Source: a virus
Lineage: Duplodnaviria; Caudoviricetes
IMG/VR virus record: IMGVR_UViG_3300025389_001172
Coordinates: 64,001 to 128,000 of that record
Reading direction: 5' to 3' (one strand)
DNA length: 64,000 nucleotides
Below, piece after piece: positions 10,114 to 42,713 of this stretch (positions are counted from its first letter, which is position 1; every line of letters starts with the position of its first letter). The notes below the pieces were generated by a model, which saw only the letters and a program-made list of their open reading frames with translations, did not search any database and was not told the origin of the DNA. The position numbers were made by a program, and so were the translations under genes.

Positions 10114-10815
10114 ATGAACATAATATTATATACTCTAATAGTGACGCACATCACCATCATATCAGTGACACTGTATCTGCATCGTGGTCAGGCACACAGA
10201 GGAATCACGTTCCACCCTATCTTAGAACATTTCATGCGTTTTTGGCTATGGCTTACCACAGGTATGATAACCAAACAGTGGGTGGCCATACATCGCAAGC
10301 ATCATCAATACTCAGATAAACCAGGTGATCCACACTCACCTCACGTATATGGTATCAAGAACATATTTTTGAGAGGAGTGTACTATTATTATCTAGCTGC
10401 CAAAGACTCTCGCATGACATTGACCTATGGTCGAGGTACTCCCGATGATTGGATAGAACGCAAGCTATACTCTAAACATAGCCGTCTAGGAGTAACCTTG
10501 ATGGGCTTTATAAATCTAGCCCTATTCGGCCCTTGGGGATTATTAGTATTGTTGGTTCAAATATTTTGGATACCGTTCTGGGCCGCAGGTGTAGTTAATG
10601 GCCTAGCCCATTGGTGGGGTTATAGAAATGGAGAAACTCGTGATAGATCTAGAAATCTTGTACCTATAGATTTTATCGTTGGCGGTGAGCTCTTGCACAA
10701 TAATCACCATCTTGATCCAGCTAATCCTAAAATGAGTCGTCGTTGGTTTGAGTTTGACATTGGTTGGATGTGGTTAGGCATATTTAGAATATTAAGGCTT
10801 GCTAAACTACGTTAA
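10114..10815 (+). CDS. Membrane fatty-acid (delta-9 type) desaturase
   Basis: Three His boxes HRGQAH, HRKHH, HNNHH; TM segments. Confidence 0.9.
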   Translation: MNIILYTLIVTHITIISVTLYLHRGQAHRGITFHPILEHFMRFWLWLTTGMITKQWVAIHRKHHQYSDKPGDPHSPHVYGIKNIFLRGVYYYYLAAKDSRMTLTYGRGTPDDWIERKLYSKHSRLGVTLMGFINLALFGPWGLLVLLVQIFWIPFWAAGVVNGLAHWWGYRNGETRDRSRNLVPIDFIVGGELLHNNHHLDPANPKMSRRWFEFDIGWMWLGIFRILRLAKLR

Positions 10816-12855
10816 TCACTTCTCCGTTGCTATCCATTCGCCGTTCCAGTTGGGTGGTAAATCTTGTTGCTTCATAAACTCGCAACGTTCAATCCAAATC
10901 TTGTAGTACTTGTCCATTTGTCCACCGAAGCTGCCTTTTAGTTGTTTACACAGGTCGGCAGCTTCATCAAACTTCTTGGCTTTATATAAGTCATGCATCG
11001 CTTCATGCTGTTCTTGATCCTTACTGTAATCGTTACCTTTGGTACGTAGTGCTGTATAGATCAAGTCCGCCACTGTTTTGCCTTTTGGTTGTAGATTATC
11101 TAACATCAGGTAGAAGAAATCATCTCGAGTACGATTGTAGGTTTCTGCACCGATAATACATAGCACACCATAAGCCTTGCAACGTGCTTCTAGTCGTGCC
11201 GCAGTTGAAACCATATCTCCCAAGATGTCGTAACCGTGTCTATCAGTTGATCCCATCTCACCAATGAAGCCAATACCTGAATTACACCCCCAACCCATTG
11301 CGGCTGGTGGCAGGCCTTTGGCTTCCATGATCTTGGTATACTCATCTACACGGTCCAACATCTCTAGTCCTACTCGAACCATTGTACGAGCGTGGTTGGG
11401 ATCTTCTATAGGAGCACCATGGATGTGCATACTGGCATCGCCCACATACTTGATGATCATACCTTTGTTTTCTATCATTGGCTGGCTGATAGCATCCATG
11501 TAGCCATTCATGTACTGACCGAGGCCTGCTACATCATCACCGTAGTGTTCGCCGATAGGAGTGAATCCACGTAGATCAGAGAACATGACGCTGACATCTT
11601 TACGCACACCACGTTTGATTAAGTCTGGATCTTTTTGTAGCATCTCTACCACTTCTTTAGAGCAGTAGCCGGCAAACTGTTTCTTTATCTGAAGTTTTTC
11701 CAAGTACTCAGCCACAAACTTAACTCCATAAGCATGGAGCATGACAAGGACAAGAGCACCACAGATATAAGCACCATCTCCAAGCCAAAGATTCTGCACA
11801 AAAAGATAACGACTGAGGGCAACACAACCAATAGAACTAATAATACCAAAAAGAATGCCAACATAGGTCCACCTCGTTAAAAATAACAGTATAATGCCTA
11901 ATCCTGCCAAGGTCAATATCTCAGCCCCATCTGCCCAATCTGGACGCTGTATCGTCACACCATTGATCATTGTGGCCAACACAGCGGCCTGTACATCTGA
12001 CGGCCATACCGCACCCTTGGATGTTGGAACAGGATTACCTAGGCCCGCGGCTGTTACACCCACTATGACCACAGCACCGCCTAAATCTTTGGGTAGATCT
12101 ACAGCACTCACTGACCTGCTTTGCTGGCTCCAATCTATCCAGATACGACCAAAATTATCTGTGGTAATAGGACCAAACTTTGGAATACGCATCTTTTCTA
12201 CACCCAGCTCGTTCAGTTTGACCTGCACTGTGGTGTCCTGTGCCAGTACACGTAGAGCCTCCATGCTTAGGCTAGGATATAGTTTACCATCTATGGTAGC
12301 TATCAAAGGTATGCGGCGATTCACACCATCTATCTCAGGTAGTGTGTTTACTGTGCCTATGCCCACTGCTGATTCTTCTAGTTCTGGACGATTGGCGATC
12401 ATGCCCGGATAGGTTATGATACGATCTAGGTATTCAGGACCTAGTACTGCAGACCCTGGAGGTCTGGGTTCATTCTTGGTTTTCTGTGAGGGCATGTTGG
12501 GCAATACCACAGGATACTCAGCGAGTGTTTTTGCCAGTTGAGCATCCTTGCCCATACGATCTGGTTCGGCCATGAGCACGTTGAATACTACAAGTCCAGC
12601 CCCACGTCGATACAAATCTCGTATTAGTTTAGCATAACGATCTCTGGGCAGAGGCCATTGTCCATATTTGTCCAGAGTGGCTTCATCTATGTTGACCGTG
12701 ACTATGTTGTTTTCAGTAGGTGCTTTGCTGGTTATCAGAGTATCAAAATAACGCAAGCGGACACTTTCTACGAATGAAGGATCCCATATTCTAATGGCCA
12801 GCATGACGGCCAGTGTAATCAGGGCCATCCAAGGATTCAGTAAGATTTTTTTCAT
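10816..12855 (-). CDS. CHASE2-domain class III adenylate cyclase
   Basis: N-terminal TM, CHASE2 (VNIDEATLDKYGQWPLPR, DGVNRRIP), three TMs, cyclase motifs FSDLRGFT, IKYVGDA, YDILGDMVSTAARLE. Confidence 0.92.
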   Translation of the reverse strand: MKKILLNPWMALITLAVMLAIRIWDPSFVESVRLRYFDTLITSKAPTENNIVTVNIDEATLDKYGQWPLPRDRYAKLIRDLYRRGAGLVVFNVLMAEPDRMGKDAQLAKTLAEYPVVLPNMPSQKTKNEPRPPGSAVLGPEYLDRIITYPGMIANRPELEESAVGIGTVNTLPEIDGVNRRIPLIATIDGKLYPSLSMEALRVLAQDTTVQVKLNELGVEKMRIPKFGPITTDNFGRIWIDWSQQSRSVSAVDLPKDLGGAVVIVGVTAAGLGNPVPTSKGAVWPSDVQAAVLATMINGVTIQRPDWADGAEILTLAGLGIILLFLTRWTYVGILFGIISSIGCVALSRYLFVQNLWLGDGAYICGALVLVMLHAYGVKFVAEYLEKLQIKKQFAGYCSKEVVEMLQKDPDLIKRGVRKDVSVMFSDLRGFTPIGEHYGDDVAGLGQYMNGYMDAISQPMIENKGMIIKYVGDASMHIHGAPIEDPNHARTMVRVGLEMLDRVDEYTKIMEAKGLPPAAMGWGCNSGIGFIGEMGSTDRHGYDILGDMVSTAARLEARCKAYGVLCIIGAETYNRTRDDFFYLMLDNLQPKGKTVADLIYTALRTKGNDYSKDQEQHEAMHDLYKAKKFDEAADLCKQLKGSFGGQMDKYYKIWIERCEFMKQQDLPPNWNGEWIATEK

Positions 12856-12860
12856 AGTAA

Positions 12861-12868
12861 TATTTATA
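12861..12868 (-). promoter_or_regulatory. T4-type late promoter TATAAATA (example of a recurrent motif)
   Basis: Perfect copies also at 15333, 24720, 54783, 56620 (minus) and 30678, 57740 (plus); TAAATA cores before csgF (21583), the autotransporter (17364) and others. Confidence 0.75.
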
Positions 12869-13523
12869 GCAGGCGTTCTAGCCAGCGTTGATTTACAGCC
12901 TTGAGATCTATCAGTGTGACTACATCTGCTGTGTGGAATACAGGATCCCAGCTGGGGTCACTGACAACACAGGCACCTAGTTTTTGATAGACCTGTAGGA
13001 GTTTGGGTATAGCACCTGTTGAAGTATCTTCTTCAAGATAGGGATTCAAAGGCACAGCGTGAGCTCCATCTAGATATCTATAGGTTTCTCTCCAATGATC
13101 ACGTGCGGCGATCACAGCGGTTTCGCTAGGCTTAAGGCTGGTAGCTCCCATGATGTATTCACAGTTTAGGCGCTTGGATAGATCGAACAGATTACCCCAC
13201 AGCATGGGAATCACTGCGGCGTTGCGATAGTCTGGATGCACAGCGGCACGCCCTATCTCTAGTATCTTTGAGTGATCTAATTTTAGGTTGGCTAGATCAA
13301 ATTCGCTTTCTGTATAAAATCCTAGATCACTGTTGACTATGGCTCTGTAGTAGCCCACTACCTTGCGATCACTGACAGCTATCACGTGATAGGCATCTTG
13401 ATCCCATTGATCTTCATCTTGTTCAGGATCTATACCAAAAGCTGACTGCATCATCTTGGCTCGGAATTTAAGAGCAGATTCTATATCATCTTCATATCCT
13501 AGTATTTTGATCTTTAATGACAT
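12864..13523 (-). CDS. GNAT N-acyltransferase, OlsB (ornithine lipid)-like
   Basis: VVGYYR, SEFDL, LEIGRAAVHPDYR, LLQVYQKLGA..DPVFHTAD. Confidence 0.75.
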   Translation of the reverse strand: MSLKIKILGYEDDIESALKFRAKMMQSAFGIDPEQDEDQWDQDAYHVIAVSDRKVVGYYRAIVNSDLGFYTESEFDLANLKLDHSKILEIGRAAVHPDYRNAAVIPMLWGNLFDLSKRLNCEYIMGATSLKPSETAVIAARDHWRETYRYLDGAHAVPLNPYLEEDTSTGAIPKLLQVYQKLGACVVSDPSWDPVFHTADVVTLIDLKAVNQRWLERLL

Positions 13524-14407
13524 TACTGTATCTTGAACCTTACGTATTCTGTGATAAGGTCAGCTACATCTACATCACAATAGGTTTCAAAACCCTTGAA
13601 TCCTGGATTTGAGTTGGCTTCGCATACACGGAACCCACGGTCATCGAACAGCAGATCTACACCAGCTATGTCTAGATTAAGAGCTCGGGCGGTTTCACGA
13701 GCGATGTAGTCAATTTCATCTGTGATCTCATATCGGCTACCAGTACCGCCACCTGTTATGTTAGCACGGAAATCACCTTCTGGTGCTGTGCGTAGCATGG
13801 CCCCCATGACCTTACCACCTATGACCAACACTCGCAGATCCTCACCTGGGCGATCACCTAGATATTCCTGCACGATCATGGTCTTCTTGTTGCCTAGATT
13901 TTCTACGAACTCTACTAATTTCTTGTAGTCTTTCTTACGCTCGCAGAGATGCACGCCTTCGCCATATGAACCTGTTACCACTTTGACCACACAGGGGAAT
14001 CCTATGTTGTCCGTCACCAGGCGATCTTCTATGGGCCAACGTACCAACATGGTGTTGGGTATGGCTATGCCCGCACGGCTCAGGATCTGGCTACTGCGAA
14101 GTTTGTCTTTGACAGTTTCTATGGCCATACTGCCATTTACACAGGGAACACCTGCCTGTTCGAAATGTCGTATAACAGCCAATTGGAAAGGCAGGATGCC
14201 AGCACCTAGCCTGACTAGGACTAATCGTGGCAGTTCCATGTCCTGACCTTTGTATTTGATACCACTCTTGATGTTGCGATCCACGATGATATCAAAATCA
14301 TCAGGATGGCAGGCACGAGCTTCTATACCTTTGGCAGCGAAGCTTTCTATGAGTCTAGTAGACTCATATTCGTTCCGTTCGTTTTTAGTCAAGATCAATA
14401 CTGTCAT
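13523..14407 (-). CDS. rimK: RimK-family ATP-grasp ligase
   Basis: GSYGEGV, DLRVLVIGG, DFRANITGGG, AGVDLL, EANSNPG. Confidence 0.85.
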   Translation of the reverse strand: MTVLILTKNERNEYESTRLIESFAAKGIEARACHPDDFDIIVDRNIKSGIKYKGQDMELPRLVLVRLGAGILPFQLAVIRHFEQAGVPCVNGSMAIETVKDKLRSSQILSRAGIAIPNTMLVRWPIEDRLVTDNIGFPCVVKVVTGSYGEGVHLCERKKDYKKLVEFVENLGNKKTMIVQEYLGDRPGEDLRVLVIGGKVMGAMLRTAPEGDFRANITGGGTGSRYEITDEIDYIARETARALNLDIAGVDLLFDDRGFRVCEANSNPGFKGFETYCDVDVADLITEYVRFKIQ

Positions 14408-15156
14408 TTACCGCTCCATTCTATTATTTCCCAGGTGCCATCCCAGTTCTCTACCAAGGCTGTACAGCTCTCAACCCAATCCCCGTCATTCATATAGACA
14501 ACACCATCTATATCTCGGATCTCAGCTGTATGTATGTGTCCACATATTATACCATCATAGCCCTTGGTTTTGCAATAGTCTGCGAGTAATTTCTCAAAAT
14601 TTAATATATAACCCACTGCCTGTTTGGTGTTCTGTTTTATCCATTTACTGATGCTCCAGTATGGCAGGCCCATACGGCTACGGATCATGGCCCAATAGTC
14701 GTTTAGTCTCACTATGAGATCATATAACCAATCGCCGACGTGCATCAATAGTCTACCGCTAGATACCTGCATGAGACCATCAAACAGATCTCCGTGTATG
14801 ATTAGATACCTACGTCCATCTAATCCGATATAATCCTCACGATTGGAAAATGTTAGACGTCCTAGATTGGGTATGTAGTGTAACCATTTGCGTATAGCTT
14901 CATCGTGATTGCCTGCTATATAGAATACTCGAGTACCTTTCTTGGCCAGTTTCAGTACCCTGCGAATTACGTCTGAATGACTCTGTGGCCAATACCAATT
15001 TTGTTTAAGTCTCCATCCATCTACTATGTCACCTACTAGGTATAGGTTGTCTGATGAATTACGTTTAAGGAAATCCAGTAGTAGTTCTGCTTTACAGCCT
15101 CTCGATCCTAGATGTATGTCGCTGATAAAAATAGAGCGATAATTTGGCTTTTTCAT
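14404..15156 (-). CDS. UDP-2,3-diacylglucosamine hydrolase-like metallophosphoesterase
   Basis: ISDIHLG, VGDIVDGW, GNHD, CGHIH, NDGDWVES. Confidence 0.85.
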   Translation of the reverse strand: MKKPNYRSIFISDIHLGSRGCKAELLLDFLKRNSSDNLYLVGDIVDGWRLKQNWYWPQSHSDVIRRVLKLAKKGTRVFYIAGNHDEAIRKWLHYIPNLGRLTFSNREDYIGLDGRRYLIIHGDLFDGLMQVSSGRLLMHVGDWLYDLIVRLNDYWAMIRSRMGLPYWSISKWIKQNTKQAVGYILNFEKLLADYCKTKGYDGIICGHIHTAEIRDIDGVVYMNDGDWVESCTALVENWDGTWEIIEWSGK

Positions 15157-15179
15157 ACCAATATTTATCGCCCTATATA

Positions 15180-15311
15180 TTACTGTACTTTTTCTGTGTG
15201 TTTATGATTGAGACTTTTCTTTAGGATCTTGAACCAGATCTTTTTGACCTTCTCTAGATTGTGTTCAATTTCAGCCTTGTTCAACTTTGTTACTAATTTT
15301 TGGATTTTCAT
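15180..15311 (-). CDS. Small basic hypothetical protein (43 aa, not in ORF track)
   Basis: MKIQKLVTKLNKAEIEHNLEKVKKIWFKILKKSLNHKHTEKVQ; AAGGAGG RBS; TATAAATA at 15333-15340. Confidence 0.65.
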   Translation of the reverse strand: MKIQKLVTKLNKAEIEHNLEKVKKIWFKILKKSLNHKHTEKVQ

Positions 15312-15344
15312 AATCGGCCCTCCTTGGATAGATATTTATAATAG

Positions 15345-15379
15345 AAAAACGGAAACAATATTAAACTATCGTTTCCGTT
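15345..15379 (-). terminator. Probable intrinsic terminator after the autotransporter
   Basis: ACGGAAAC...GTTTCCGT stem followed by T-run on minus strand. Confidence 0.5.
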
Positions 15380-15399
15380 CTGTTACTGACGCTACAGAT

Positions 15400-17331
15400 T
15401 TAGAATGCTATCTGTACTGAAGCCTGTGCTGAATTGTTAACGAAGCCATTAAATCTTTGGCTGTTGAATCCCAGACGAACCTGTGTACGATCCTTGACAT
15501 TGGTACTGAGTCCAGCACTGACTGTGTTAAGATCCTGTGTATTCCTAGATACTTCAGCATAGACATTGGTACTAGGTAATAGCGGTATGACCTGCTCAAC
15601 TCTCACACCTGATTCATAGCTGGTCTGGCTCTGACGTATTGGATCATAGGTCACAGCAGTCATATCACTACCAGCATCGGCTGCACCGTTGGTCTTGGTA
15701 AGATCATAGCGTGCTCCAACGAATGGACGTATGCCACGATAGGCCGGAGCATAGGCACGACCGTTGACCCAAAGATCAACACCGTTAGTGCTGGCACTGT
15801 TAGCATAGCCTAATTCAGGTAAACTGTGTGCTGTGGAATATCTGTTTACAGCACCTGCGACATCTGCTTTGAATAACCAATCTTTATAACTCTTAAGAGC
15901 ATAAACACCTAGAGCATCTTTCTGTAGTTGTCCACTGCTGTTATCAGAACTCATGTTGACCTGCACACGATGATACTGTGCTCCGACTGTTAGGTCAGAA
16001 CTAATACGGTGATCATAGCCCACACCAATACGACTTGTGTTGAAACTGGTGCTGTCTGGAGTATTGCTACGACTTCCCTGTACATTTACCCAATCAACTC
16101 CGTCACGTCCATTCCAGCCCTGTGTACCATCAGGGTGACGACCTAGTATGTCGCTGTCTAGTCCATGGTTAAGGGCACCGTTGATCTGTCCTAATTTGGC
16201 CAACTGATCGATACGTGTTGTGTAGTCTTGTGGTACTGCTACTACTCCTGTGGCGCTACCATTGGTAGTAACTGTGACCACATTGTTGGCCACCGAACTA
16301 GTCACTACTGGTGTTCCGTTGGTTACCACTACGCTACCGTCACTGTAGGTATCTGTGGTAACAGGTGTTGTTGTAACTGTAGTTGTAACAGGAGTTGTGG
16401 TAACTGTGGTCAATACCCAAGGAGTCACTGTTGTAGTTGTTGTAGTCCTAGTAACTGTTAGTACCTGAGGTGTTTGACCTCTACGAGCATCAGTGAGAGC
16501 CACAGTGCTTGTTGGAGCACCATAGGCTGTGCTGTTGGTAACCACCGGGGTACCGTTGACTGAACTCGAACTCACAGAATTAGCAGTAGTTGAACTCACT
16601 ATAGTTGGAGCTGGAGGTGGAGGTGGATTGGTATTTCCAGCATTACTACCCACGGCTGGAGTGGCCAACGTGGTAAATCCTGAACCTGCTCTCATGCTAC
16701 AGTTTGCCGCGGCTATAGTCACGTCAGCACAGGCGCCAGCATAGACGCCTATCTGGACCCCACTGTTAACTGTGTTATTACCATAAACACTGAATGACAG
16801 TGAATATGTGATTCCAGAAGTAAGGCTAACACCTTGATAGATACCATCGAAACTACCAACGGCACCGTCGATCCAAGAACCTGCTGTTGAGGTGTTGACT
16901 CCTTGTCCACCGTTATAAACCACATTCTGCCAATTCTGTCCTGGTGCTTGCCAAGTACCTGCGGCAGCCGGGGTAGTACCATTCTGATACCATACACCCC
17001 AATACTGCGGAGCCTGTAGTCCATTTTGTCCAGGTATCGCTCCACCTGTGGCAAAATTACCATTGGTGACTAGATTACTACCGCCACCTGTGTTGAGTAA
17101 TACGTTGCCCAGTGTCCAATAGGCCGGATCCTGTCTAAAAGCAAATCCCACATAGTTAGCACCTGTTGTTGATGGTGAGAATGTGTAGGTATAGTTCTGC
17201 CAAGTGTTAGCAGAAGTATATGCTATACCTGTGCTACTGCTGATATTGTCTACTGTGGGTAATAGCTGTGCTATACCAGTGGTTGATACAAAGATCAACA
17301 AGGCCGCAATGGCCCTTTTGATTAATTTCAT
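15400..17331 (-). CDS. Autotransporter-like outer-membrane protein with Pro/Thr-rich stalk
   Basis: Signal peptide, beta-rich N-domain, PPPPPAP linker, TTTPV repeats, C-terminal beta-barrel ending in aromatic residue (VQIAF). Confidence 0.75.
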   Translation of the reverse strand: MKLIKRAIAALLIFVSTTGIAQLLPTVDNISSSTGIAYTSANTWQNYTYTFSPSTTGANYVGFAFRQDPAYWTLGNVLLNTGGGSNLVTNGNFATGGAIPGQNGLQAPQYWGVWYQNGTTPAAAGTWQAPGQNWQNVVYNGGQGVNTSTAGSWIDGAVGSFDGIYQGVSLTSGITYSLSFSVYGNNTVNSGVQIGVYAGACADVTIAAANCSMRAGSGFTTLATPAVGSNAGNTNPPPPPAPTIVSSTTANSVSSSSVNGTPVVTNSTAYGAPTSTVALTDARRGQTPQVLTVTRTTTTTTVTPWVLTTVTTTPVTTTVTTTPVTTDTYSDGSVVVTNGTPVVTSSVANNVVTVTTNGSATGVVAVPQDYTTRIDQLAKLGQINGALNHGLDSDILGRHPDGTQGWNGRDGVDWVNVQGSRSNTPDSTSFNTSRIGVGYDHRISSDLTVGAQYHRVQVNMSSDNSSGQLQKDALGVYALKSYKDWLFKADVAGAVNRYSTAHSLPELGYANSASTNGVDLWVNGRAYAPAYRGIRPFVGARYDLTKTNGAADAGSDMTAVTYDPIRQSQTSYESGVRVEQVIPLLPSTNVYAEVSRNTQDLNTVSAGLSTNVKDRTQVRLGFNSQRFNGFVNNSAQASVQIAF

Positions 17332-17387
17332 ACGTCGCTCCCGTAATGATGTTAGTGTGCTATTATTTACTGCTTATATTATTATAA

Positions 17388-17957
17388 TTAATTGCGTATA
17401 TAACTCCAGCCCGATCCACAAGGATTGCACTGTATGTTCATGCCGCCTTGACTGGCCTGTGTGGGATTGGTCTGCTGAATGGTTACACCAGCACCAGTGG
17501 CACCATTTAGCCAGAGATTGAATGTTTTATCTGCACCGGCACCGCCACTTTGTGTGACATCTACAGTATTGTTATTATTAGTTGTACCTGCAACACCGGT
17601 TATGGTCATGCTGTGATTACCGGCACCGGTCTGCGTGATACCTATGTTGTTGGCCGATCCGTTTAGGTTCTGTATGTTGGCAGTATGATTGCCTGTGCCG
17701 TCTTGGAACATGATAACCCCATTGTTAATACCCGACGGTATGTCTACTGTGGCAGTTTTAGCACCTGTACCCTGCTGTGTTATGTTTATCGTAGTGTTGT
17801 CCGCAGGACTGGTTTTACCTAAGGTTAATGTTGCTGAATGCCCTGATCCATCTTGCGTGATTGAGATGGTGTTGTTGTCACCTACCTGATCTATGTTAAC
17901 AGTATTATCTGCTGCCCACACATTGAAACAGACTAGAGCTAATAGAAATCGTTTCAT
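17388..17957 (-). CDS. Curlin-repeat protein (CsgA/CsgB-like)
   Basis: Signal peptide; repeats such as NTVNIDQVGDNN, ISITQDGSGH, IGITQTGAGNH. Confidence 0.8.
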   Translation of the reverse strand: MKRFLLALVCFNVWAADNTVNIDQVGDNNTISITQDGSGHSATLTLGKTSPADNTTINITQQGTGAKTATVDIPSGINNGVIMFQDGTGNHTANIQNLNGSANNIGITQTGAGNHSMTITGVAGTTNNNNTVDVTQSGGAGADKTFNLWLNGATGAGVTIQQTNPTQASQGGMNIQCNPCGSGWSYIRN

Positions 17958-19090
17958 TTTTGTATTAAGGTAATGGTGGTGTTACTGCCCGAGTTTACTC
18001 GGTTCTTAAAATCTAAAGGGCCCTGTGTCATATAAATGGTGCTGTTTTGATTTTTAGGTACAGTTACACTCATTACGTCACTGCCGTTATCCCGACTTAG
18101 AGTTACAGTATTGTCATCTACTGTGGCTACTATGCCAGATATAGCAGTATAATCTGGCAATAGTCCTGATTTGGTATTGTTCAGCAGGTCTAGCTGTGCA
18201 GCCAACTGTGCATTGATAATGTCCAAGATATTGGCCAAGAACGTTTGATCCAGGAAATTGCGGCTCAGTGTATCTTTGAATAGGTCTTTTTCCTGTGCAT
18301 CAAACGCATTAACCAGGCCGGTTTCTTTTAAGAAGTCTACATCAAGTGCACCTTTAGAGTCTACTCGAACTTGTGTTTTTTCGTTGTTTTGTTGTAGTTG
18401 TTTAGGTGGTGCTACTATTAGCATATTGTTGATAGCATCTTCGCCTATTCGCAACACCACTGGTTTCAATGGCATGACACCGCGAGTTTCTACTTTGGTC
18501 GCTTGAAATGCCTGATCTAGCAGAACTTTACCCACATCGGTTATAACCTCAATCGAGCCAGTTTTACAATCACGTTCTACATCTCGATATCCAGCCGGGC
18601 AACTGGGTAATAGTATGATGGTACTAGCACCTAACTCGTCTACAGTGGCACTGAAATCAGTACCTCGTACAGCAATAGTGGCACTAGGAGTATTGAGAGC
18701 AACCTTACTAGGATCGTTTTTAGCAATAGCACCTGACGCATAACGTACAGTACCCGATGCCATATTAAGCGCCAGCTTGCCTACAGCAGGTCGTTTGGGA
18801 TCGTAGACAAAATCATCAATGACTAACCGGCTGTTTTCGTTTACCTGTACTCGAGTATCATCCTGGAAGGTTATTCCCACCTTGCCCCGGGCTGTCCGTA
18901 TCGCATCCTGCATCTCCACCCCCGAGCCCCGAGTTCCCTCCAAGGTCGTCTTCGACCGTTGTATCGAAGGCGGCACATTAACCTGTTCCGTTATGGTCCC
19001 TATCGCCGCGATGGTGTCTTGCGATGAGATCAGCAAGAGTACGCATAATACTTCCTTCCATATCAATCTCCTCTTAAAAACCATGAACAT
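17954..19090 (-). CDS. FecR-domain periplasmic protein
   Basis: Signal-like N-terminus (start probably 19090 or 19084); ITFQDDTRVQVNENSRLVID and TPSATIAVRGTDF FecR motifs. Confidence 0.85.
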   Translation of the reverse strand: MFMVFKRRLIWKEVLCVLLLISSQDTIAAIGTITEQVNVPPSIQRSKTTLEGTRGSGVEMQDAIRTARGKVGITFQDDTRVQVNENSRLVIDDFVYDPKRPAVGKLALNMASGTVRYASGAIAKNDPSKVALNTPSATIAVRGTDFSATVDELGASTIILLPSCPAGYRDVERDCKTGSIEVITDVGKVLLDQAFQATKVETRGVMPLKPVVLRIGEDAINNMLIVAPPKQLQQNNEKTQVRVDSKGALDVDFLKETGLVNAFDAQEKDLFKDTLSRNFLDQTFLANILDIINAQLAAQLDLLNNTKSGLLPDYTAISGIVATVDDNTVTLSRDNGSDVMSVTVPKNQNSTIYMTQGPLDFKNRVNSGSNTTITLIQK

Positions 19091-19233
19091 TTCTGTAGTT
19101 CTTTCATTATCTGATCGGCCGTGGTACCGTGTACACGAGCTGCCATCTCCACGAAATCTAACCAACGCTGTGCCGCATTGGTCTGTCCGTCGGCCCATTG
19201 CTGATACATATTTTTAAGTGTCCACTGATCCAT
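19063..19233 (-). CDS. Small hypothetical protein (56 aa, not in ORF track) inserted in the csg operon
   Basis: MDQWTLKNMYQQWADGQTNAAQRWLDFVEMAARVHGTTADQIMKELQKCSWFLRGD; starts right after the curlin stop. Confidence 0.6.
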   Translation of the reverse strand: MDQWTLKNMYQQWADGQTNAAQRWLDFVEMAARVHGTTADQIMKELQKCSWFLRGD

Positions 19234-19234
19234 A

Positions 19235-20017
19235 TTAGTGATTGTTTTGATTTATAGTCATACTACCTCCACTGCCAGCGATCTTTAGGTTAGCAATATT
19301 ATCACCACCAGTACCAGTCTGTGTAACACCTACAGTATTACCAGAGCCGGTAATATCAATAGTAGATTGATGACCGTTTACTCCACCGGTTTGCAGGACA
19401 TTGACTGTGTTTGTAGCACCTGCTATGGTCACAGCACTGGTTCCACCTGGACTCTGTAGATCCATGCTGACAGTATTACCGCCCCCGCCGGTTATAGCCA
19501 AGGTACCTGTGATATTATCACCTAGAGCACCAATGGTAGCTGAGTTATTGGCTCCACCAGCTGTGTTGACCGTTATAGTGTTGCTAGCACCAATGGATTT
19601 AATATCGGCCGAGCTGGCATTACCTGATTGTGTCACCCCAATGTTGTTGCCTGAGCTGTTGGTTGTGTTACTACCAAGCTGTATAGTAGCTGAGCTATTC
19701 ATACTGTTACTAACGCTGTAGTTAACTGTACTAGCTGCCACTGATGTGTCAGTCTGTATGCCCAGTCGTAGTGTATTACCGCTACCGACCTGACTTACCG
19801 ATACCTGATTACCATCTCCGTAGATTTTGGCAGGTGTAGTAGAACTTGTACCTACACCTGGTAGGCCCCTAACCACGTTGCCTGCTCCATCCTGTGATAT
19901 GGCTACTATGGCGTTATCGCCGGCCTGATCAATATAGATACTATTGTCTGCGGCCCAACTGTTTATGTTCATAATGGCTAGCATTAGTAGTGTTATTTTA
20001 GCTAGTTTTGTTTTCAT
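19235..20017 (-). CDS. Curlin-repeat protein (CsgA/CsgB-like)
   Basis: Signal peptide; repeats DNSIYIDQAGDN, NQVSVSQVGSGN, NTVGVTQTG. Confidence 0.8.
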   Translation of the reverse strand: MKTKLAKITLLMLAIMNINSWAADNSIYIDQAGDNAIVAISQDGAGNVVRGLPGVGTSSTTPAKIYGDGNQVSVSQVGSGNTLRLGIQTDTSVAASTVNYSVSNSMNSSATIQLGSNTTNSSGNNIGVTQSGNASSADIKSIGASNTITVNTAGGANNSATIGALGDNITGTLAITGGGGNTVSMDLQSPGGTSAVTIAGATNTVNVLQTGGVNGHQSTIDITGSGNTVGVTQTGTGGDNIANLKIAGSGGSMTINQNNH

Positions 20018-20037
20018 TTTGGTTTCCTTACGGTCTG

Positions 20038-21108
20038 TTAGTTGGCCGCTCTTAATCGCTCTCTTTTTACGAATCCTTTTACTCCTATCGCTATTTCTAC
20101 TTCTACTACATCCTTCACGTCTGTGTCTTTAACCGTTGCTACAGTGTTGGCTGGTACTACTACGAAAGGTCCATATAAGGGTCCTTCGAGATTTGATTTA
20201 CGTTTATAAACTTTGGTATTAGCCGCAAACACCATCTTTACTATTTTGGGTTCTTCTGCTTTTTTGACTTCTGGAACTACTACTACTGGAGGTGGAGGCG
20301 GTGCTACAGGTGCCTGCACAGATTCAGGTTTACGATAGTCCCAGATACCCTTGCGCTCACCTTCCTTGATTAGTTCTACCACAGCGGCTTCGATCGTGGC
20401 CTTGACAGCTAGCGTACCTGGTTCGTTTATGGTTAATCCTGCTTCAGCTTCAAATGCCTGTGTACCGTCGTCTAGGAATTTTAACACGGCAAAACTGTCG
20501 GCAGTGCTGTACACTATCTTGGTCACGTGTACAGCCGCCAAGACCTTGCCGGTATTGACACTTATGGCTCGCAAACTGATAGTCACTGTGTCTTTGCTGT
20601 ACTGTGTCTGTGTGCCTATACCCAGGAAACGATGTGCGGCTCCGCCTGATTCAGATCCCGAATCATAACCAATGATACCACCTTCCATGATGATGCCGGC
20701 AAACTGCATGGGCATGAGCGGTTTGGCATTGACACCTTCATAGGCTTCACGCATCTGGCGTATGATTGTGCGTTCTTTGGTTAAAGCATCTATATTGATT
20801 CTTTCTACAACATCAAACCATTGCCCGTGCCCCACATCCTGTAGGGCCTTGATCAAGAACACTTCGGCCCCTTGTGTGACTGCTGTACTCAGACTAGCAA
20901 TACCCGATACTGGTTTGCGTTGTCCGGTTTTATCAGCAAAATTATACACTGCCACGCTGAGCTTTCGCCCCTCTGGTGGTGGTATCGAATCAAACTCTTT
21001 TTGCATGCGATTTGGCACCACTTCGGGTTGGTATTCAAAACCGGCTTTTTGAACTATAGCACAACCTGCAAGTGCAAGTATCATGACGAGGGATAGAATT
21101 TTTTTCAT
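20038..21108 (-). CDS. csgG: Curli secretion pore CsgG
   Basis: Lipobox LALAGC; VAVYNFADKTGQRKP, STAVTQGA, WFDVVER, LTKERTII, EGGIIGYD. Confidence 0.92.
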   Translation of the reverse strand: MKKILSLVMILALAGCAIVQKAGFEYQPEVVPNRMQKEFDSIPPPEGRKLSVAVYNFADKTGQRKPVSGIASLSTAVTQGAEVFLIKALQDVGHGQWFDVVERINIDALTKERTIIRQMREAYEGVNAKPLMPMQFAGIIMEGGIIGYDSGSESGGAAHRFLGIGTQTQYSKDTVTISLRAISVNTGKVLAAVHVTKIVYSTADSFAVLKFLDDGTQAFEAEAGLTINEPGTLAVKATIEAAVVELIKEGERKGIWDYRKPESVQAPVAPPPPPVVVVPEVKKAEEPKIVKMVFAANTKVYKRKSNLEGPLYGPFVVVPANTVATVKDTDVKDVVEVEIAIGVKGFVKRERLRAAN

Positions 21109-21109
21109 A

Positions 21110-21565
21110 TTAAAATTGGAATTGTCCTAGAGGTACTGTGACCTGTGTTTGATTGCCCACTGTGTCAGTCACTGTGAGGTATACATTTGAGCTATCTTTG
21201 GTCCAGAATATGGTATTGCCTTCAAAGTTCAATGACCCACTTGTACTACCACCCGATGCAAACATGGCAGTGGCTAGATTCTGGCTGATCTGTGCGTAGA
21301 TACGGCTTTCTAGATTGTTCAAGAACTTGGCCAAATTGGTGTTCTGTGCGGCTGCCGCCTGTGCCTGTAGTGCAGCCTGTATGTCTTTGGCTATCTGTTG
21401 CTGACGTGTGTATTCCTGGTTTTCTATGGTCAACACATGACTGCTGTAACCGTTGCCGTTAAAACTAGGACTTTTGAAACTGTAATCAGCCATTGGTGTA
21501 GAAACGGCTAGGGGCGTCCAGGATAGGATACCAGCAGTAAGTAAGATTTTGTATAGTGTATTCAA
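21110..21565 (-). CDS. csgF: Curli assembly protein CsgF
   Basis: Signal peptide, YSFKSPSFNGNG, FLNNLESRIYAQIS; TTG start after AGGAG; adjacent to csgG. Confidence 0.85.
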   Translation of the reverse strand: MNTLYKILLTAGILSWTPLAVSTPMADYSFKSPSFNGNGYSSHVLTIENQEYTRQQQIAKDIQAALQAQAAAAQNTNLAKFLNNLESRIYAQISQNLATAMFASGGSTSGSLNFEGNTIFWTKDSSNVYLTVTDTVGNQTQVTVPLGQFQF

Positions 21566-21613
21566 GGTTTGACTCCTATTAGTATTTAACAGGAATCTGA
21601 TGTTTTTATTGTG

Positions 21614-22669
21614 TTAGATTATATCTTTGGGTATAGGAAGTTGATTTCCTTCTTGATCTACGTAAATAACATCTTTTGTTCCTGATTTTCCAAATGCTCG
21701 TGTAGCAGTAGCCGCGTGTACTCCTAATCCTCTAATACCAGTTTTAGATCTATCATTTTGATTTCTGATGGTAAAATACATCATATGACTTTTTGGAACA
21801 TCTGCTAATTTTGTAATTACAGCATGACACTCTATTTCTATAAAGTTTCCATTTTGTACAAAATGATGTGGTTGGAAATCTTGTATAACTATACCCCCAT
21901 GTGGATTGATATCAGTCCCAAATATAGTTTTAAGTACATCTTCAGGAGTAGGTTGAACAACAATTTCTCTATCAATCCTGTAAATTGGAACAATCTGACC
22001 TTTAATTTCTCTATCTTTAAGTTTAGACAATTTAACCAAACCGTCGTTTATTAATTTTTTTATAATTGGAAACGCTCTTGGTCCAAATAAAGAATCAGCA
22101 GTTTCCCAATTTTCAGCATCGGTTTGTTTAATAGAAACAGGAATTCTTCTATCTGGACTAAAAAGTGCTACATCACCCTTCAATCCGCCTTGAGTTTTAC
22201 TTCCAATATGTTCAACTCTGTTAACTTTTGGAACATCCAAAATTCTTCCTTGATCATCCTTAAATCTCACGTTTACCGAGCCAGATGCATCGATTTCTTT
22301 TTGTATTAATTTTGCTAGAGCTATTTCATTCGCCTTACCACTATGTTTAGTCCCTTGTGTTTTATTATTTTTGTAGGCAATAGTGAACGGGCTACCATCA
22401 ATAACGATACCCCCTAAACTAGAAGTATTTTTATTAGGATCAAAATGTGTATTACGACCTAATTCTTTAGCCAATACAGGTACTAATTGTTGCATGGCAT
22501 TTAATCGCCATTTGTTTTGATCCTTATCCGGAAAATCAATTAATGGTAATATTTTGTTGCCATTTTTTTTGATACCTTTAATATCCGGAACAATCCTATT
22601 GAGAACTAACTCTAAATCGTTATAGGTTAACGAATCTGATATTTCAAAAAGTAAGTCAATTATACGCAT
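21614..22669 (-). CDS. AT-rich putative PD-(D/E)XK-like nuclease with capsid-targeting-like N-terminus
   Basis: KANE...KGDVAL...VSIKQ pattern; MRIIDLLFE N-terminus; visibly AT-richer than flanks. Confidence 0.5.
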   Translation of the reverse strand: MRIIDLLFEISDSLTYNDLELVLNRIVPDIKGIKKNGNKILPLIDFPDKDQNKWRLNAMQQLVPVLAKELGRNTHFDPNKNTSSLGGIVIDGSPFTIAYKNNKTQGTKHSGKANEIALAKLIQKEIDASGSVNVRFKDDQGRILDVPKVNRVEHIGSKTQGGLKGDVALFSPDRRIPVSIKQTDAENWETADSLFGPRAFPIIKKLINDGLVKLSKLKDREIKGQIVPIYRIDREIVVQPTPEDVLKTIFGTDINPHGGIVIQDFQPHHFVQNGNFIEIECHAVITKLADVPKSHMMYFTIRNQNDRSKTGIRGLGVHAATATRAFGKSGTKDVIYVDQEGNQLPIPKDII

Positions 22670-22679
22670 AATACGTTAT

Positions 22680-23351
22680 TTACCCAAATTCAGGAAACAG
22701 TATCTCATCTACGAATTTGCGTATTACAGTTTCTTCTACACCCATTGAGACCATACTGCGTACTACATGCGGATTCTGCTTTTGATAACGGCAGTATCGA
22801 TCTTGCTCCGCACGATAATCCGCATCTTCTTGCTTATAGCTTCCTATATTGGCCAGATAGTAGTGTAGGCTTTTCATCGCTATATGGCACAGTGATTCTA
22901 GTTCTGCTTCTTCATTGACATTGCCCGCGGCTATCATGCTAGGACTGAATATGGCTCGGGCCCAATCGGGTAATTCTCTAGGCTTGTTCCACTGTAGATC
23001 TTCTGTTTCTTCGGCAAACCATGACATCATAGGATGTTGAGGATCCGCAGTAGCTGAGAAATCTAGGAATGTGCCTGTGATCTTGTTTGGACCGCAGACA
23101 GCATCAAATCCCCAGATCGGACCTGGATCATTTAATTTTGGAAATATAGTGCAGTGTAAGATGTATATTTTATGACTCTGTCGTTTATCTACGATTTCTA
23201 CGTGGGCTCTACGGTATGAACCGCTGTGGAATATGGCATTGTGCCAATCGTACCCTTCGATATGATTATTAAACAGTTTACCTGATGTGGCTAATTTATA
23301 TTCTATATCTCGGGCTAATTTTTCTATACGGTCTTGTACATTAACAGTCAT
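22680..23351 (-). CDS. Ferredoxin-dependent bilin reductase (PcyA/PcyX-like)
   Basis: YRRAHVE, LHCTIFP, PIWGFD, ITGTFLDFS, RELPDWARAIFS, YCRYQKQNPH; adjacent to heme oxygenase. Confidence 0.85.
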   Translation of the reverse strand: MTVNVQDRIEKLARDIEYKLATSGKLFNNHIEGYDWHNAIFHSGSYRRAHVEIVDKRQSHKIYILHCTIFPKLNDPGPIWGFDAVCGPNKITGTFLDFSATADPQHPMMSWFAEETEDLQWNKPRELPDWARAIFSPSMIAAGNVNEEAELESLCHIAMKSLHYYLANIGSYKQEDADYRAEQDRYCRYQKQNPHVVRSMVSMGVEETVIRKFVDEILFPEFG

Positions 23352-23868
23352 AGGTCCCTAGTATCTTGATAGCCCAATCAAAAGCCACGTTGGCTTCATC
23401 AGCCATACTGTCATCTAGCATACCACGCAATACGAACATGAGGTCTTTGCTGTTTTCGAACTCTAGATGACTATGTGGAGCATCTATGATCTTCTTGATC
23501 ATCTGTCCGCCAAACATATCACCCATGTGCCAGGTATACAGGTGTGCCAGCACTGCGTTAGGATCGGTAAGGTCTCTGATATAACCGCAGTAGTCTGTGG
23601 TCTCTAGCTTTAAGAAATGTCGGTCATCTCTGCCCTGCATCATTTCTTCATAGTCTGCCAGTATGAGTTCTGCACGTTCGATGCCTGGGAGATCGTCTAA
23701 CAGCCCTAGAGCCTGGCAGCGAATCTCGATACTCTTGTACCAAGAGTATTTTTGATAGGTATAATCGATCCATACCTCCATCGGCAGTGTGTGATCAAAT
23801 ACGGCCTGCATGAATCGAGTACTTTCTGCGGCCTTGTGGCGTTCTTGTGTTAGTTCTTTGAGGCTCAT
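23341..23868 (-). CDS. Heme oxygenase (HemO/Ho1-like)
   Basis: LKELTQERHKAAE, AHLYTWHMGDMFGGQMIKK, EANVAF. Confidence 0.9.
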   Translation of the reverse strand: MSLKELTQERHKAAESTRFMQAVFDHTLPMEVWIDYTYQKYSWYKSIEIRCQALGLLDDLPGIERAELILADYEEMMQGRDDRHFLKLETTDYCGYIRDLTDPNAVLAHLYTWHMGDMFGGQMIKKIIDAPHSHLEFENSKDLMFVLRGMLDDSMADEANVAFDWAIKILGTYDC

Positions 23869-24176
23869 TCTGGTACTGCCTTGATCAATAATGGGAAGTT
23901 ATTAGCACGGCTTAGCTCAGTGGCATCTATGACTTTCTGCTCAGCTATTTCGTGCGTGTAGATGCCCGCTACTCCGGAGCCTTCATCGTGTATCTGTTGG
24001 GTGATCCTGATCGCCGAATCAGTGGTATGTCTAAATATTCTAACCAGTAATAGAATTACAAATTCCACGGTTGTATAATCGTCATTGAGGATTACCACTT
24101 TATACCTGCTGGGTTCTTTGATCCGTTTATCGGTAGTGTTGTCTACGATTACTACTTCTTCTATGTCAGTTGCCAT
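23865..24176 (-). CDS. clpS: ATP-dependent Clp protease adaptor ClpS
   Basis: YKVVILNDDYTTVEFV, IHDEGSGVAGIYTHEIAEQK, FPL. Confidence 0.92.
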   Translation of the reverse strand: MATDIEEVVIVDNTTDKRIKEPSRYKVVILNDDYTTVEFVILLLVRIFRHTTDSAIRITQQIHDEGSGVAGIYTHEIAEQKVIDATELSRANNFPLLIKAVPE

Positions 24177-24193
24177 GATCTGTGTCGGTAGAT

Positions 24194-24224
24194 AAAATTA
24201 AGTTGGGGGAGGATTCCCCCAACT
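24194..24224 (-). terminator. Intrinsic terminator after hsp20
   Basis: GTTGGGGGA-loop-TCCCCCAAC stem followed by T-rich tract on minus strand. Confidence 0.65.
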
Positions 24225-24227
24225 GTG

Positions 24228-24662
24228 TCACTCAGCCTTGATTTTTAATATTCTCGGCTTTAATGCTTCTGGAATAACACGAGTAAGTTCTATGGTCAGC
24301 ACACCATTTCGTATGCGACCTTCACCTACTTCCATGTGTTCTGCCAGTGTCCAGCTACGAGTGAAATCACGTGTAGCCAGGCCACGCTGTAGATACACAG
24401 TATCTTCATCGTCGGCACCTTTTCGATGGCCTTTTACAACCAACTGATTTTGATCAACTTCGACTGCAATCTCGTCTGGTTCAAATCCTGTCACAGCGAT
24501 CTCGATCTCATATGAGTTCTCATCGTGTTTCAATATATTGAACGGAGGATAGTTGTTGTTGATTTGATTTGCAAAGCGTGCCTCGAAGTTATCGAATAAG
24601 CTGTCAAATCCTAATAGTGCTCTGTTTAGAGCGTTGGTGTCGAAACGTACTAATTGTGTCAT
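24228..24662 (-). CDS. Small heat-shock protein Hsp20 (IbpA-like)
   Basis: NYPPFNI, YEIEIAVTGF, YLQRGLATRDF, NGVLTIEL. Confidence 0.92.
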   Translation of the reverse strand: MTQLVRFDTNALNRALLGFDSLFDNFEARFANQINNNYPPFNILKHDENSYEIEIAVTGFEPDEIAVEVDQNQLVVKGHRKGADDEDTVYLQRGLATRDFTRSWTLAEHMEVGEGRIRNGVLTIELTRVIPEALKPRILKIKAE

Positions 24663-24746
24663 TGTTTTCTCCTTGTTTAAGTAAGATATATGTAAGGCCC
24701 ATTAGGTACCCTACATATATATTTATACACTGATTTATTACCCCTG

Positions 24747-26642: not shown

Positions 26643-26731
26643 TAGTTTTCTCCTTATTAAGTGAGTATATCCGGGCACTATGCCCATTCGTAGCATCCAT
26701 TAGGTATACCACACCTTTATTTAGTATACAT

Positions 26732-38753: not shown

Positions 38754-38761
38754 AGATCTAT

Positions 38762-39295
38762 TTATTGATCTTCTACAAACTCAAATAGTCCTGTTGATTT
38801 TAATAATGGAGTTTTTTTACCGGTAGGTTTTGTTTTATTTCCAAATGGTCGATAACCGTGTTTACGTTGATGTGCATCTGAAAGATCATCTTCGATTCTT
38901 TGTAATTCACTCCTAGGATTATCTAACTCAAAAGGAGCATTGGTATAGTCTTTAATAGTCACCACTATGTCGTCTTTATCAAATTTACATTTGAAGGTAG
39001 TTTCAATATTTTTAATAATTTCATCCATATCTTTTTTAGTAGATGGACACCTTTTTAAGTTAGGTTTAGTCCATCCTGGCATGTGACCTATTTGTGTATA
39101 TATTCGTTCACCATAGTCGTTACCATTGCCTCCATGCTTATGCTGGATTCCGTATTTTACAGTTTGTCCTTTCCATGATATTTTGTAAACATAAAATCTA
39201 ATTTTTTGCTTACGACAGAACCTCATAATAGAAGTATAGTCATTTATTAAATTTAATGAAATAGTATAAGTTGGCGGGATATAATCTGTTATCAT
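38762..39295 (-). CDS. AT-rich putative GIY-YIG-like nuclease
   Basis: YVYKI...VKYG...ERIYTQ and late E..L...P.GN pattern; AT-rich. Confidence 0.45.
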   Translation of the reverse strand: MITDYIPPTYTISLNLINDYTSIMRFCRKQKIRFYVYKISWKGQTVKYGIQHKHGGNGNDYGERIYTQIGHMPGWTKPNLKRCPSTKKDMDEIIKNIETTFKCKFDKDDIVVTIKDYTNAPFELDNPRSELQRIEDDLSDAHQRKHGYRPFGNKTKPTGKKTPLLKSTGLFEFVEDQ

Positions 39296-42273: not shown

Positions 42274-42356
42274 GATTTAGTTTCCTTTTTGTTATGATAC
42301 ATCTTTTAGATTAAGATATATTCTATATTATATATCCTATATGAGATTACACCTAT

Positions 42357-42385
42357 GAAAAAGCGGCCATAAATAGCCGCTTTTT
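42357..42385 (-). terminator. Bidirectional terminator after tmRNA
   Basis: AAAAAGCGGC-loop-GCCGCTTTTT. Confidence 0.8.
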
Positions 42386-42710
42386 GGTTGTTTTGGTTAC
42401 AAGGTAAGTCCTACCCCGTGAGGATCATGCCGCTAAGGCATATACCTCATCATTAGATGCGTTAGCATTTATAGATTTGCTTGATTAAGGATCATCGCCT
42501 ATCCTGTTGCCTTTTTCGCTATCTCACCATGTCGAACCCAGGTCAGACCCATCAAAAGAACACTACCCTGTATTACGCCTCAGGCATACCCGATGCTCAG
42601 GATTCTTGCTCTACTAGCCACCGTGACGGATAGTAATGTTCTTATGGTGGATCTGGTGGGAATCGAACCCACGTCCACAATGCCTTTGCTAGAAAGGAAT
42701 TACAACAATT
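42386..42710 (-). ncRNA. ssrA: Circularly permuted (two-piece) tmRNA; outer ends approximate
   Basis: Acceptor piece first (GGTTCGATTCC T-arm, CAGATCCACCA ending 42645), intervening segment 42551-42644, coding piece from 42550 (GGGTCTG, G3:U70 pair); tag ORF 42425-42466 ANASNDEVYALAA-stop. Confidence 0.92.
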
Positions 42711-42713
42711 CTT

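Follow-up and report, generated by a model that had tools for sequence, protein, structure and literature searches.

The 64,000-nucleotide (nt) stretch of viral DNA analysed here (hereafter, the window) comprises bases 64001-128000 of the 141,321-bp record IMGVR_UViG_3300025389_001172 (43% G+C; CheckV completeness estimate 39%) and carries a minus-strand block that combines curli (csg) genes, a gene for a FecR-fold protein and a gene for a membrane-bound CHASE2 class III cyclase. In phages, the csg genes, FecR and the cyclase form a real, conserved, co-inherited unit. With a probability of roughly one half, we read the block as the viral curli, FecR and cyclase module known from the literature, residing here in a large T4-like phage and carrying an insertion of envelope-related cargo, which would combine fibre export with an envelope sensor.

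The gene content of this module has already been published. Wittmers et al (2022) showed that pelagiphages, both myo- and podoviral, encode CsgF, CsgG, CsgA/B and FecR together with another CsgA/B and an adenylate cyclase, with conserved order, trees pointing to Alphaproteobacteria and expression in metatranscriptomes (PMC9599517). FecR and the cyclase were called putatively regulatory, with FecR treated as an iron regulator; the pairing of FecR with CHASE2 is absent from that paper, in which the word "CHASE" does not occur (0 mentions). Zaragoza-Solas et al (2020) and Buchholz et al (2022) (PMC9004378) described phage csgF and csgG and never mentioned FecR or the cyclase, and the viral curli of phages including HTVC008M and Melnitz are treated in PMC7029224 and PMC9004378. 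A literature search returned no publication containing both "CHASE2" and "CsgG", and a search on the function of phage-encoded adenylate cyclases yielded nothing relevant.

Genes of the block were identified by Pfam and NCBIfam profile searches, and structure models were searched with Foldseek and aligned with VIA-align (Table 1). In the direction of transcription, the order is csgF, csgG, curlin 1, FecR, curlin 2, autotransporter, terminator, an open reading frame (ORF) of 44 amino acids (aa), LpxH-like, RimK, OlsB-like and cyclase, with plausible signal peptides on all exported components. Every gene that a preliminary description of the window had placed on this strand (csgF, csgG, two curlins, FecR, autotransporter and CHASE2 cyclase) is matched by Pfam. 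The cyclase also lies downstream in the same block as described there, although the intervening terminator, the 44-aa ORF and three enzyme genes had been omitted.

The closest annotated relatives of the cyclase belong to Methylophilales phage Melnitz (44% identity) and Pelagibacter phage HTVC008M (37%). Both have the order csgF-csgG-curlin-FecR-curlin-cyclase, which is kept in the window with the cargo inserted before the cyclase. Megablast of the block against the phage collection gave no DNA-level match, and Melnitz and HTVC008M were found by protein searches only. A cyclase-alignment scan of IMG/VR recovered at least 584 relatives, and linkage was counted in the 52 fetched loci with at least 9 kb of upstream sequence. 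All but one of these (51/52) contain csgG and FecR; in three of the 51, the csg block has the inverse orientation and flanks the cyclase from the opposite side, so that the linkage survives rearrangement. The reverse search, anchored on csgG in marine loci (query, HTVC008M CsgG; counted only where enough downstream sequence was present), found FecR in 34/34 and the cyclase in 18/18 cases. Hence, csg genes, FecR and cyclase do not occur independently across related phages, as the common role suggested in the preliminary description would have it.

Pairwise distance matrices for 78 phage loci divide the module in two. One block is formed by CsgF, CsgG and the two halves of FecR (r 0.82-0.91 among themselves), the other by CHASE2, the transmembrane (TM) region and the catalytic domain (r 0.71-0.90), while correlations across the blocks range from 0.32 to 0.66.

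Ten cyclase-carrying, phage-like contigs (35-75% identity to the cyclase of the window) lie inside metagenome-assembled genomes (MAGs) of unrelated phyla. The longer ones carry csg, FecR and cyclase, the shortest hold the cyclase alone, and all are probably mis-binned phage DNA. Their labels (loci L083-L090, L095 and L101) read Chitinophagaceae, Luteolibacter, Bacteroidetes, Legionellales, Pirellulales, Flavobacteriaceae, Rhodobacteraceae and Pelagibacter. A bacterial source of the whole module was considered, and none was found, the MAG-labelled carriers being phage-like.

Curli parts, FecR-fold protein and CHASE2 cyclase

To judge from their sequences, the csg genes of the block constitute a complete type VIII secretion system (T8SS) unit of alphaproteobacterial style, that is, a CsgG-fold lipoprotein, an adjacent CsgF and Sec-exported subunits with curlin repeats. 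The N-terminal FxSPSFNGN-type stretch of CsgF resembles the CsgG-binding peptide of E. coli CsgF. CsgG has the lipobox LALAGC, whose Cys16 is invariant in 49 homologues, and its model aligns with curli CsgG (6lqh_A; Z 15.9, 34% identity). The C-terminus (window 20038-20340) is built of a Pro-rich linker and an SH3b-like domain (residues about 286-356), the model of which superposes on the endolysin SH3b domain 4krt_B with a Z of 8.1 and a root-mean-square deviation (rmsd) of 1.9 over 63 residues. A linker of 40-100 residues with an SH3b-like tail recurs in 31 of 78 phage CsgG homologues. By its modelled fold, this domain is of the cell-wall- or peptidoglycan-binding type found in endolysins.

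The curlin repeat Q-x-G-x-x-N-x-A/I-x3-Q is visible in both signal-peptide curlins, and the end of the FecR gene and the start of the curlin 2 gene have 4 nt in common. Most relatives have a second curlin of 370-716 aa (e.g. L004:7352-9502 and L158:10638-11963) with repeats confined to the C-terminal half; the N-terminal 200-500 residues represent a candidate fibre-displayed domain.

Neither CsgE (PF10627) nor a GerE/CsgD-type domain (PF00196) is matched in the 141-kb record, which extends the absence of csgE and csgD noted in the preliminary description to the whole record and sets the block apart from an enterobacterial-type curli regulon. Alphaproteobacterial csg operons likewise have no CsgE and CsgD. 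The same description had proposed that the block may serve something other than ordinary amyloid production. A complete alphaproteobacterial-type unit with two signal-peptide curlins speaks against this proposal, and fibre export therefore remains likely; we consider it probable that the curlins are exported.

A different use of the same parts has been proposed for Melnitz, in which CsgG/CsgF would be a gated pore, akin to a pinholin or secretin, that has been repurposed to time lysis, and the other genes would be accessories. The structural modelling and synteny arguments of PMC9004378 and the late-type promoters in the window agree with such a pore. However, PMC9004378 assumed that fibre genes are lacking, whereas signal-peptide curlin-repeat proteins are present both in the window and in Melnitz. 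Moreover, holins act at the inner membrane and the CsgG pore lies in the outer one, and FecR and the cyclase would be left unexplained. A lysis-timing pore is therefore highly improbable.

The FecR-fold protein probably starts at position 19090, where a Sec signal peptide begins in 49 homologues (all 49 have one). Its model (predicted local distance difference test, pLDDT, 81.6) comprises three parts, a confidently modelled beta domain (residues 26-230), a poorly modelled helical stretch and a small C-terminal beta domain. Residues 26-230 align with the PupR signalling domain 6ovm_R (Z 15.1, rmsd 2.7 over 135 residues) and with BDI_1681 (4m0h; Z 13.8). For the C-terminal 60 residues, only immunoglobulin-like structural matches were obtained (Z about 3.5), none of them informative. 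A C-terminal "plug", suggested by a Foldseek match to an adhesin anchoring domain (5ix9), was discarded, as VIA-align placed the match on residues 27-123. Apart from the cleavable signal peptide, the protein consists of the periplasmic fold only, with no anti-sigma part, membrane anchor or STN subdomain. Thus, it is not a FecR-type anti-sigma factor, nor is it an iron regulator. Relatives fall into more than 6,000 protein clusters in metagenomes, and a large protein search with FecR returned close phage relatives only and no bacterial context.

The cyclase consists of TM1, a periplasmic CHASE2 domain, three TM helices, the catalytic domain and a helical C-terminal tail. PF05226 is covered from position 3 to 254 of 257, and hydrophobic segments lie at residues 3-29 and 307-382. 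Catalytic positions are occupied by D427, K469, D473, D543, S550 and R554, of which the metal-binding D427/D473, the substrate pair K469 and D543 and the transition-state R554 are all conserved in the phage clade. The specificity residues named in the preliminary description (K of IKYVGD and D of YDILGD) are present and conserved, and from this Lys/Asp pair the product is predicted to be cyclic AMP (cAMP). The ATP-type reading of the enzyme given there holds in this respect, but overlooked that the catalytic Asn is replaced. The transition-state Asn of the GD-x-V-N-x-A-x-R motif, a mark of class III cyclases, is Ser550 here (MVSTAAR). The Asp...Ser pattern at positions 543/550 occurs in 72/82 phage loci, including the window and Melnitz, whereas Ser/Thr...Asn is kept in HTVC008M-type phages and in all bacterial CHASE2 cyclases compared. 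The coupled and conserved nature of the Asp/Ser change argues for an enzyme that is altered but probably working. Defence-system models gave only a weak match to PycC (Pycsar) in the block; at 41 bits, it is expected from the shared fold, no effector accompanies it, and the Lys/Asp pair points to ATP.

Proposed fibre export and envelope sensing

Comparison with bacteria links FecR to CHASE2. Searching one genome per species with the cyclase alignment, we obtained 51 bona fide CHASE2 loci (20-30% identity). In 34 of them, the CHASE2 gene has a FecR-domain ORF no more than 10 kb away, and in 31 no more than 2 kb away; this adjacency holds for cyclase as well as for the longer kinase-type CHASE2 outputs. 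Profile searches for CsgG, CsgF and curlins within 10 kb found none in the 51 loci. Among the two upstream genes of 40 loci, FecR is the commonest Pfam family (18), followed by TPR (12), OmpA (6) and SlipAM (6). For example, Hyphococcus luteus and Sulfurimonas have a TPR/barrel gene followed by FecR and a CHASE2 cyclase, Sulfurovum has a fusion of FecR to an OmpA-like barrel beside the cyclase and a GAF-containing class II cAMP phosphodiesterase, and the CHASE2 locus of Desulfopila contains FecR and an OmpA-type peptidoglycan-binding protein. When the phage FecR domain was compared with five whole bacterial genomes, its top match in three of them was the very FecR gene that adjoins CHASE2. Both halves of the bacterial pair recur in the window, as a CHASE2 protein with 1+3 TM helices and an exported FecR protein related to the bacterial partners.

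Conversely, a CsgG 40-46% identical to that of the phage was found in 7/401 sampled alphaproteobacterial genomes. These loci hold csgF and curlins, but neither FecR nor CHASE2 is encoded within 10 kb. The phage block therefore appears to be chimeric, a curli secretion unit joined to an envelope sensor of the FecR-CHASE2 kind, with FecR interleaved between the curlin genes. The proposed relay is supported in part, its FecR-CHASE2 half by solid comparative evidence, and the two proteins would probably form a working pair.

In the reading that we favour, curlin subunits would be exported late in infection through CsgG/CsgF to the cell surface, and the FecR-fold protein and the CHASE2 cyclase would act as a two-part envelope sensor borrowed from the widespread bacterial FecR-CHASE2 arrangement. 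In bacteria, this arrangement usually starts at an outer-membrane or peptidoglycan-bound component, which the curli machinery of the phage would replace. The proposal is made because CsgG has an SH3b domain and because the FecR gene lies between the curlins, translationally coupled to curlin 2. By analogy, the SH3b tail may echo the peptidoglycan-binding LysM and OmpA parts of bacterial FecR-CHASE2 clusters, a parallel rather than a proof. The output of the cyclase would be set by the state of the pore, the fibres or the envelope. The cAMP produced would act on host receptors, since no domain binding cyclic nucleoside monophosphates was found in the record (39% complete) or in five relatives of 193-300 kb, all incomplete.

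That the T8SS provides the physical input of the sensor is rather doubtful. The stronger version, in which the curli pore and its fibres form an outer-membrane antenna signalling from CsgG/curlin via FecR and CHASE2 to cAMP, is improbable. If true, such an antenna would let a lytic phage read contact, other phages or envelope damage and adjust host physiology or the timing of lysis, in functional analogy to T4 lysis inhibition and with bacterial signalling parts. The preliminary description had put forward this relay. Its gene unit is co-inherited and FecR is the usual neighbour of CHASE2 in bacteria; however, phage FecR co-evolves with the csg genes and not with CHASE2. Overall, the relay is plausible but unproven, and the superinfection sensing also suggested there is pure speculation.

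Several observations weigh against a tight relay. FecR distances track those of CsgF and CsgG (r 0.84-0.91), and their correlation with CHASE2 is only 0.53 over the 78 loci, which indicates that recombination reshuffles cyclase alleles relative to FecR alleles. In the window, the FecR and cyclase genes are 5 kb apart, with separate promoter boxes and a terminator between them, and thus belong to different transcription units. The FecR protein has neither barrel, lipobox nor STN, and its contact with the outer membrane is conjecture, as is the step from pore or curlin to FecR. The transition-state Asn is Ser in the clade to which the cyclase belongs, and in mammalian cyclase this change strongly lowers the turnover number. 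Finally, a phage receptor for cAMP is missing from the sequences searched.

In an alternative explanation, curli-like fibres on the infected cell are the whole purpose of the module, and would serve to aggregate cells ("sibling capture") or to shield them from other phages. FecR would then be a periplasmic T8SS helper replacing CsgE, CsgC or CsgH, and the cyclase a separate host-takeover gene that is a neighbour by descent. The complete set of T8SS parts with two signal-peptide curlins, the joint evolution of FecR with the csg block and the overlap of the FecR stop with the curlin 2 start are in keeping with this explanation. Further, recombination and the variable cargo site set the cyclase apart, which has its own promoter-like box, and hypotheses of a similar kind have been published (PMC7029224, PMC9599517). 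Yet a cyclase that is a neighbour by descent fits poorly with a near-perfect two-way co-occurrence that survives inversion. Likewise, a helper role of FecR is at odds with its closest similarity being to the FecR partners of bacterial CHASE2 sensors and with the sampled bacterial csg loci having no FecR gene. An aggregating function is at odds with the report by Buchholz et al that Melnitz-infected cells do not clump (PMC9004378). We regard fibres as the sole purpose, and the helper and host-takeover roles that come with it, as unlikely.

The wiring might also run in reverse. FecR-CHASE2 would then respond to a cue from the envelope or from nutrients that has nothing to do with curli, and cAMP would control the expression or timing of curli or host genes via the CRP of the host. 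This was argued in PMC9599517 by analogy with the control of csgD by CRP-cAMP in E. coli, and bacterial FecR-CHASE2 pairs are indeed stand-alone sensors. The csg genes, however, lie behind a phage late-promoter-like box and not behind a CRP-type promoter, and the record contains no CsgD. The late lytic cycle would leave little time for a transcriptional loop, and neither the record nor the five large relatives, incomplete as they are, yielded a phage cAMP receptor. Reverse wiring is quite unlikely.

The module is very common in aquatic phages, as the number of IMG/VR stretches retrieved with the cyclase indicates, and its function is an admitted mystery in three papers. In podoviruses, an upstream histidine kinase has been reported. 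Reading the module as a fusion of curli with a FecR-CHASE2 sensor would also illuminate what bacterial CHASE2 sensors, widespread but barely studied, detect.

Cargo site and TAAATA boxes

Cargo occupies the interval between FecR and the cyclase, which spans 0-6 kb in relatives and 5 kb in the window, where about 4.5 kb of cargo with a terminator separate curlin 2 from the cyclase. The first cargo gene encodes a type Va autotransporter with signal peptide, passenger and barrel. PF03797 matches its last 286 of 643 aa with 45.5 bits against a cut-off of 26 (E 1e-11), and its ESM Atlas neighbours are autotransporters. It is cargo in few relatives, with homologues in loci L049, L065, L080 and L081. 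The metallophosphoesterase gene occurs in about 6/80 related loci, and its score with the LpxH NCBIfam (50 bits) is below the cut-off of 134. Whether it acts as a cAMP phosphodiesterase, as in the Campylobacterota clusters, is undecided, given its LpxH-like character, scores below every curated cut-off and rarity among relatives.

Table 1. Features of the csg-FecR-cyclase block and its cargo in window coordinates, listed in the direction of transcription.
Feature	Position	Strand	Description
TAAATA late-promoter-like box	21583..21588	-	17 nt upstream of csgF, followed by ribosome-binding site
csgF	21110..21565	-	151 aa, TTG start, signal peptide; PF10614 E 3.6e-13
csgG, outer-membrane lipoprotein	20038..21108	-	356 aa; PF03783 E 3.8e-43
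Curlin-repeat protein 1	19235..20017	-	260 aa, signal peptide; PF07012 E 3.8e-6; weak CsgB NCBIfam match
Exported FecR-fold protein	17954..19090	-	378 aa from likely start; ORF to 19198; PF04773 E 4.3e-10
Curlin-repeat protein 2	17388..17957	-	189 aa, signal peptide; PF07012 E 2.4e-9; CsgA NCBIfam E 6e-6
TAAATA box before autotransporter	17364-17369	-	
Autotransporter	15400..17331	-	643 aa: signal peptide, passenger, Thr-rich linker, C-terminal beta-barrel, terminal Phe
Intrinsic-terminator-like hairpin after autotransporter	15346..15381	-	15-pair stem and T run
Box and 44-aa ORF	15176..15340	-	Exact TATAAATA box 15333-15340, ribosome-binding site, ORF 15176-15310
LpxH-like calcineurin-type metallophosphoesterase	14404..15156	-	250 aa; PF00149 E 1e-15
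RimK-family ATP-grasp ligase	13523..14407	-	294 aa; PF08443 E 6e-47; TIGR00768 223 bits, above cut-off
OlsB-like GNAT N-acyltransferase	12864..13523	-	219 aa; PF13444 E 1e-17; OlsB NCBIfam weak, below cut-off
TATAAATA box before cyclase	12856..12868	-	Ends 5 nt before ATG, no ribosome-binding site
Membrane CHASE2 class III cyclase	10816..12855	-	679 aa; PF05226 E 5e-43, PF00211 E 2e-13

Around the cyclase (10114-15156), the LpxH-like, RimK-type and OlsB-like genes and a convergent desaturase gene share a lipid or envelope theme. The fatty-acid desaturase gene (10114-10815, plus strand) adjoins the cyclase in about 20 related loci.

The late TAAATA boxes mentioned in the preliminary description are present, and TAAATA behaves as a real signal in the record. 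Non-coding sequence, 7.4% of the 141 kb, holds 45 of the 88 sites, and for 40 of the 88 a gene in the same orientation starts 0-60 nt downstream. In the window, the secretion genes, FecR and the cyclase all lie behind boxes of this one class. Near the csgF start, TAAATA occurs in 54/59 related loci against a background of 11%, with the consensus TAAATAcTAaTA followed by GGGAGCGAA, a conserved ribosome-binding site. Near the cyclase start, it occurs in 47/78 loci against the same background, and ATAAATA in 30/78 against 3.4%. Most relatives have the box at the cyclase as box-N4-5-ATG, independent of the upstream gene and with no room for a ribosome-binding site. In the window, (A/T)TAAATA-N5-ATG without a ribosome-binding site is found at 12856-12868 (cyclase), 15157-15167 (phosphoesterase) and 38754-38764 (a 437-aa gene). 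The same arrangement also precedes two genes just past the window end, so that at least three genes of the record share the arrangement with the cyclase and the phosphoesterase. The T4-type late promoter box spans positions -13 to -6. If the boxes are T4-type late promoters, the mRNAs of all these genes would be leaderless late transcripts.

Directly upstream of csgF, a 351-aa protein (21614-22669) has no Pfam match and is matched only by phrog_12709; a TAAATA box lies 7 nt before its start. Further upstream (22680-26696) follow host-type genes for a ferredoxin-dependent bilin reductase, heme oxygenase, ClpS, Hsp20 and a full-length DnaK/Hsp70. The phage also encodes a tmRNA (42334-42737, minus strand) with the tag ANASNDEVYALAA; the tmRNA of Melnitz has already been published.

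Relation to known systems

With the FecA-FecR-FecI and PupB-PupR systems, the phage protein shares the periplasmic FecR/PupR fold. Their cytoplasmic anti-sigma part, membrane anchor, STN, extracytoplasmic function (ECF) sigma factor and TonB-dependent transducer are missing from the phage block.

The genetic precedent for an outer-membrane input to CHASE2 cyclases is the NsrA-CyaK relay of Sinorhizobium (PMC7529298), which the preliminary description had cited in essence and which is indeed documented. In S. meliloti NsrA-CyaK/CyaD1/D2, an outer-membrane protein is required for an external protein signal to reach the inner-membrane CHASE2 cyclases (PMC7529298, PMC13001267). By contrast, the phage block has no NsrA-like barrel, and the S. 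meliloti receptor Clr has no counterpart in the phage.

Closer likeness is found in bacterial FecR-CHASE2 clusters, such as the Campylobacterota cluster of CHASE2 cyclase, FecR outer-membrane protein, TPR protein and phosphodiesterase (PMC9239204) and the Burkholderia BiofilmReg with LysM/FecR and a CHASE2 kinase (PMC5192318). Like the phage block, these clusters combine an exported FecR protein with a 1+3 TM CHASE2 sensor; they have a third component linked to the outer membrane or peptidoglycan, and the output in Campylobacterota is cAMP. Unlike the Campylobacterota and Burkholderia proteins, the phage FecR is soluble, with no barrel, LysM or OmpA part. Its gene is embedded among curlin genes, whereas the sampled bacterial clusters hold no csg genes, and Asp/Ser in the phage cyclase stands against Ser/Thr and Asn in every bacterial CHASE2 cyclase compared.

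As in the phage block, alphaproteobacterial csg operons group csgF and csgG with curlin genes and have neither csgE nor csgD. The seven loci differ from the phage block in the absence of a nearby FecR or CHASE2 gene.

The closest counterpart is the pelagiphage T8SS region (PMC9599517), with which the window shares genes and order at 37-45% amino-acid identity to Melnitz and HTVC008M, as well as the absence of csgE, csgC and csgD. The window extends this published cassette to a different and larger phage lineage and reveals a site before the cyclase that collects envelope-related cargo, a modest gain. Relative to the pelagiphage region, it is thus distinguished by its larger T4-like phage record, by the cargo and terminator, and by a CsgG with linker and SH3b domain.

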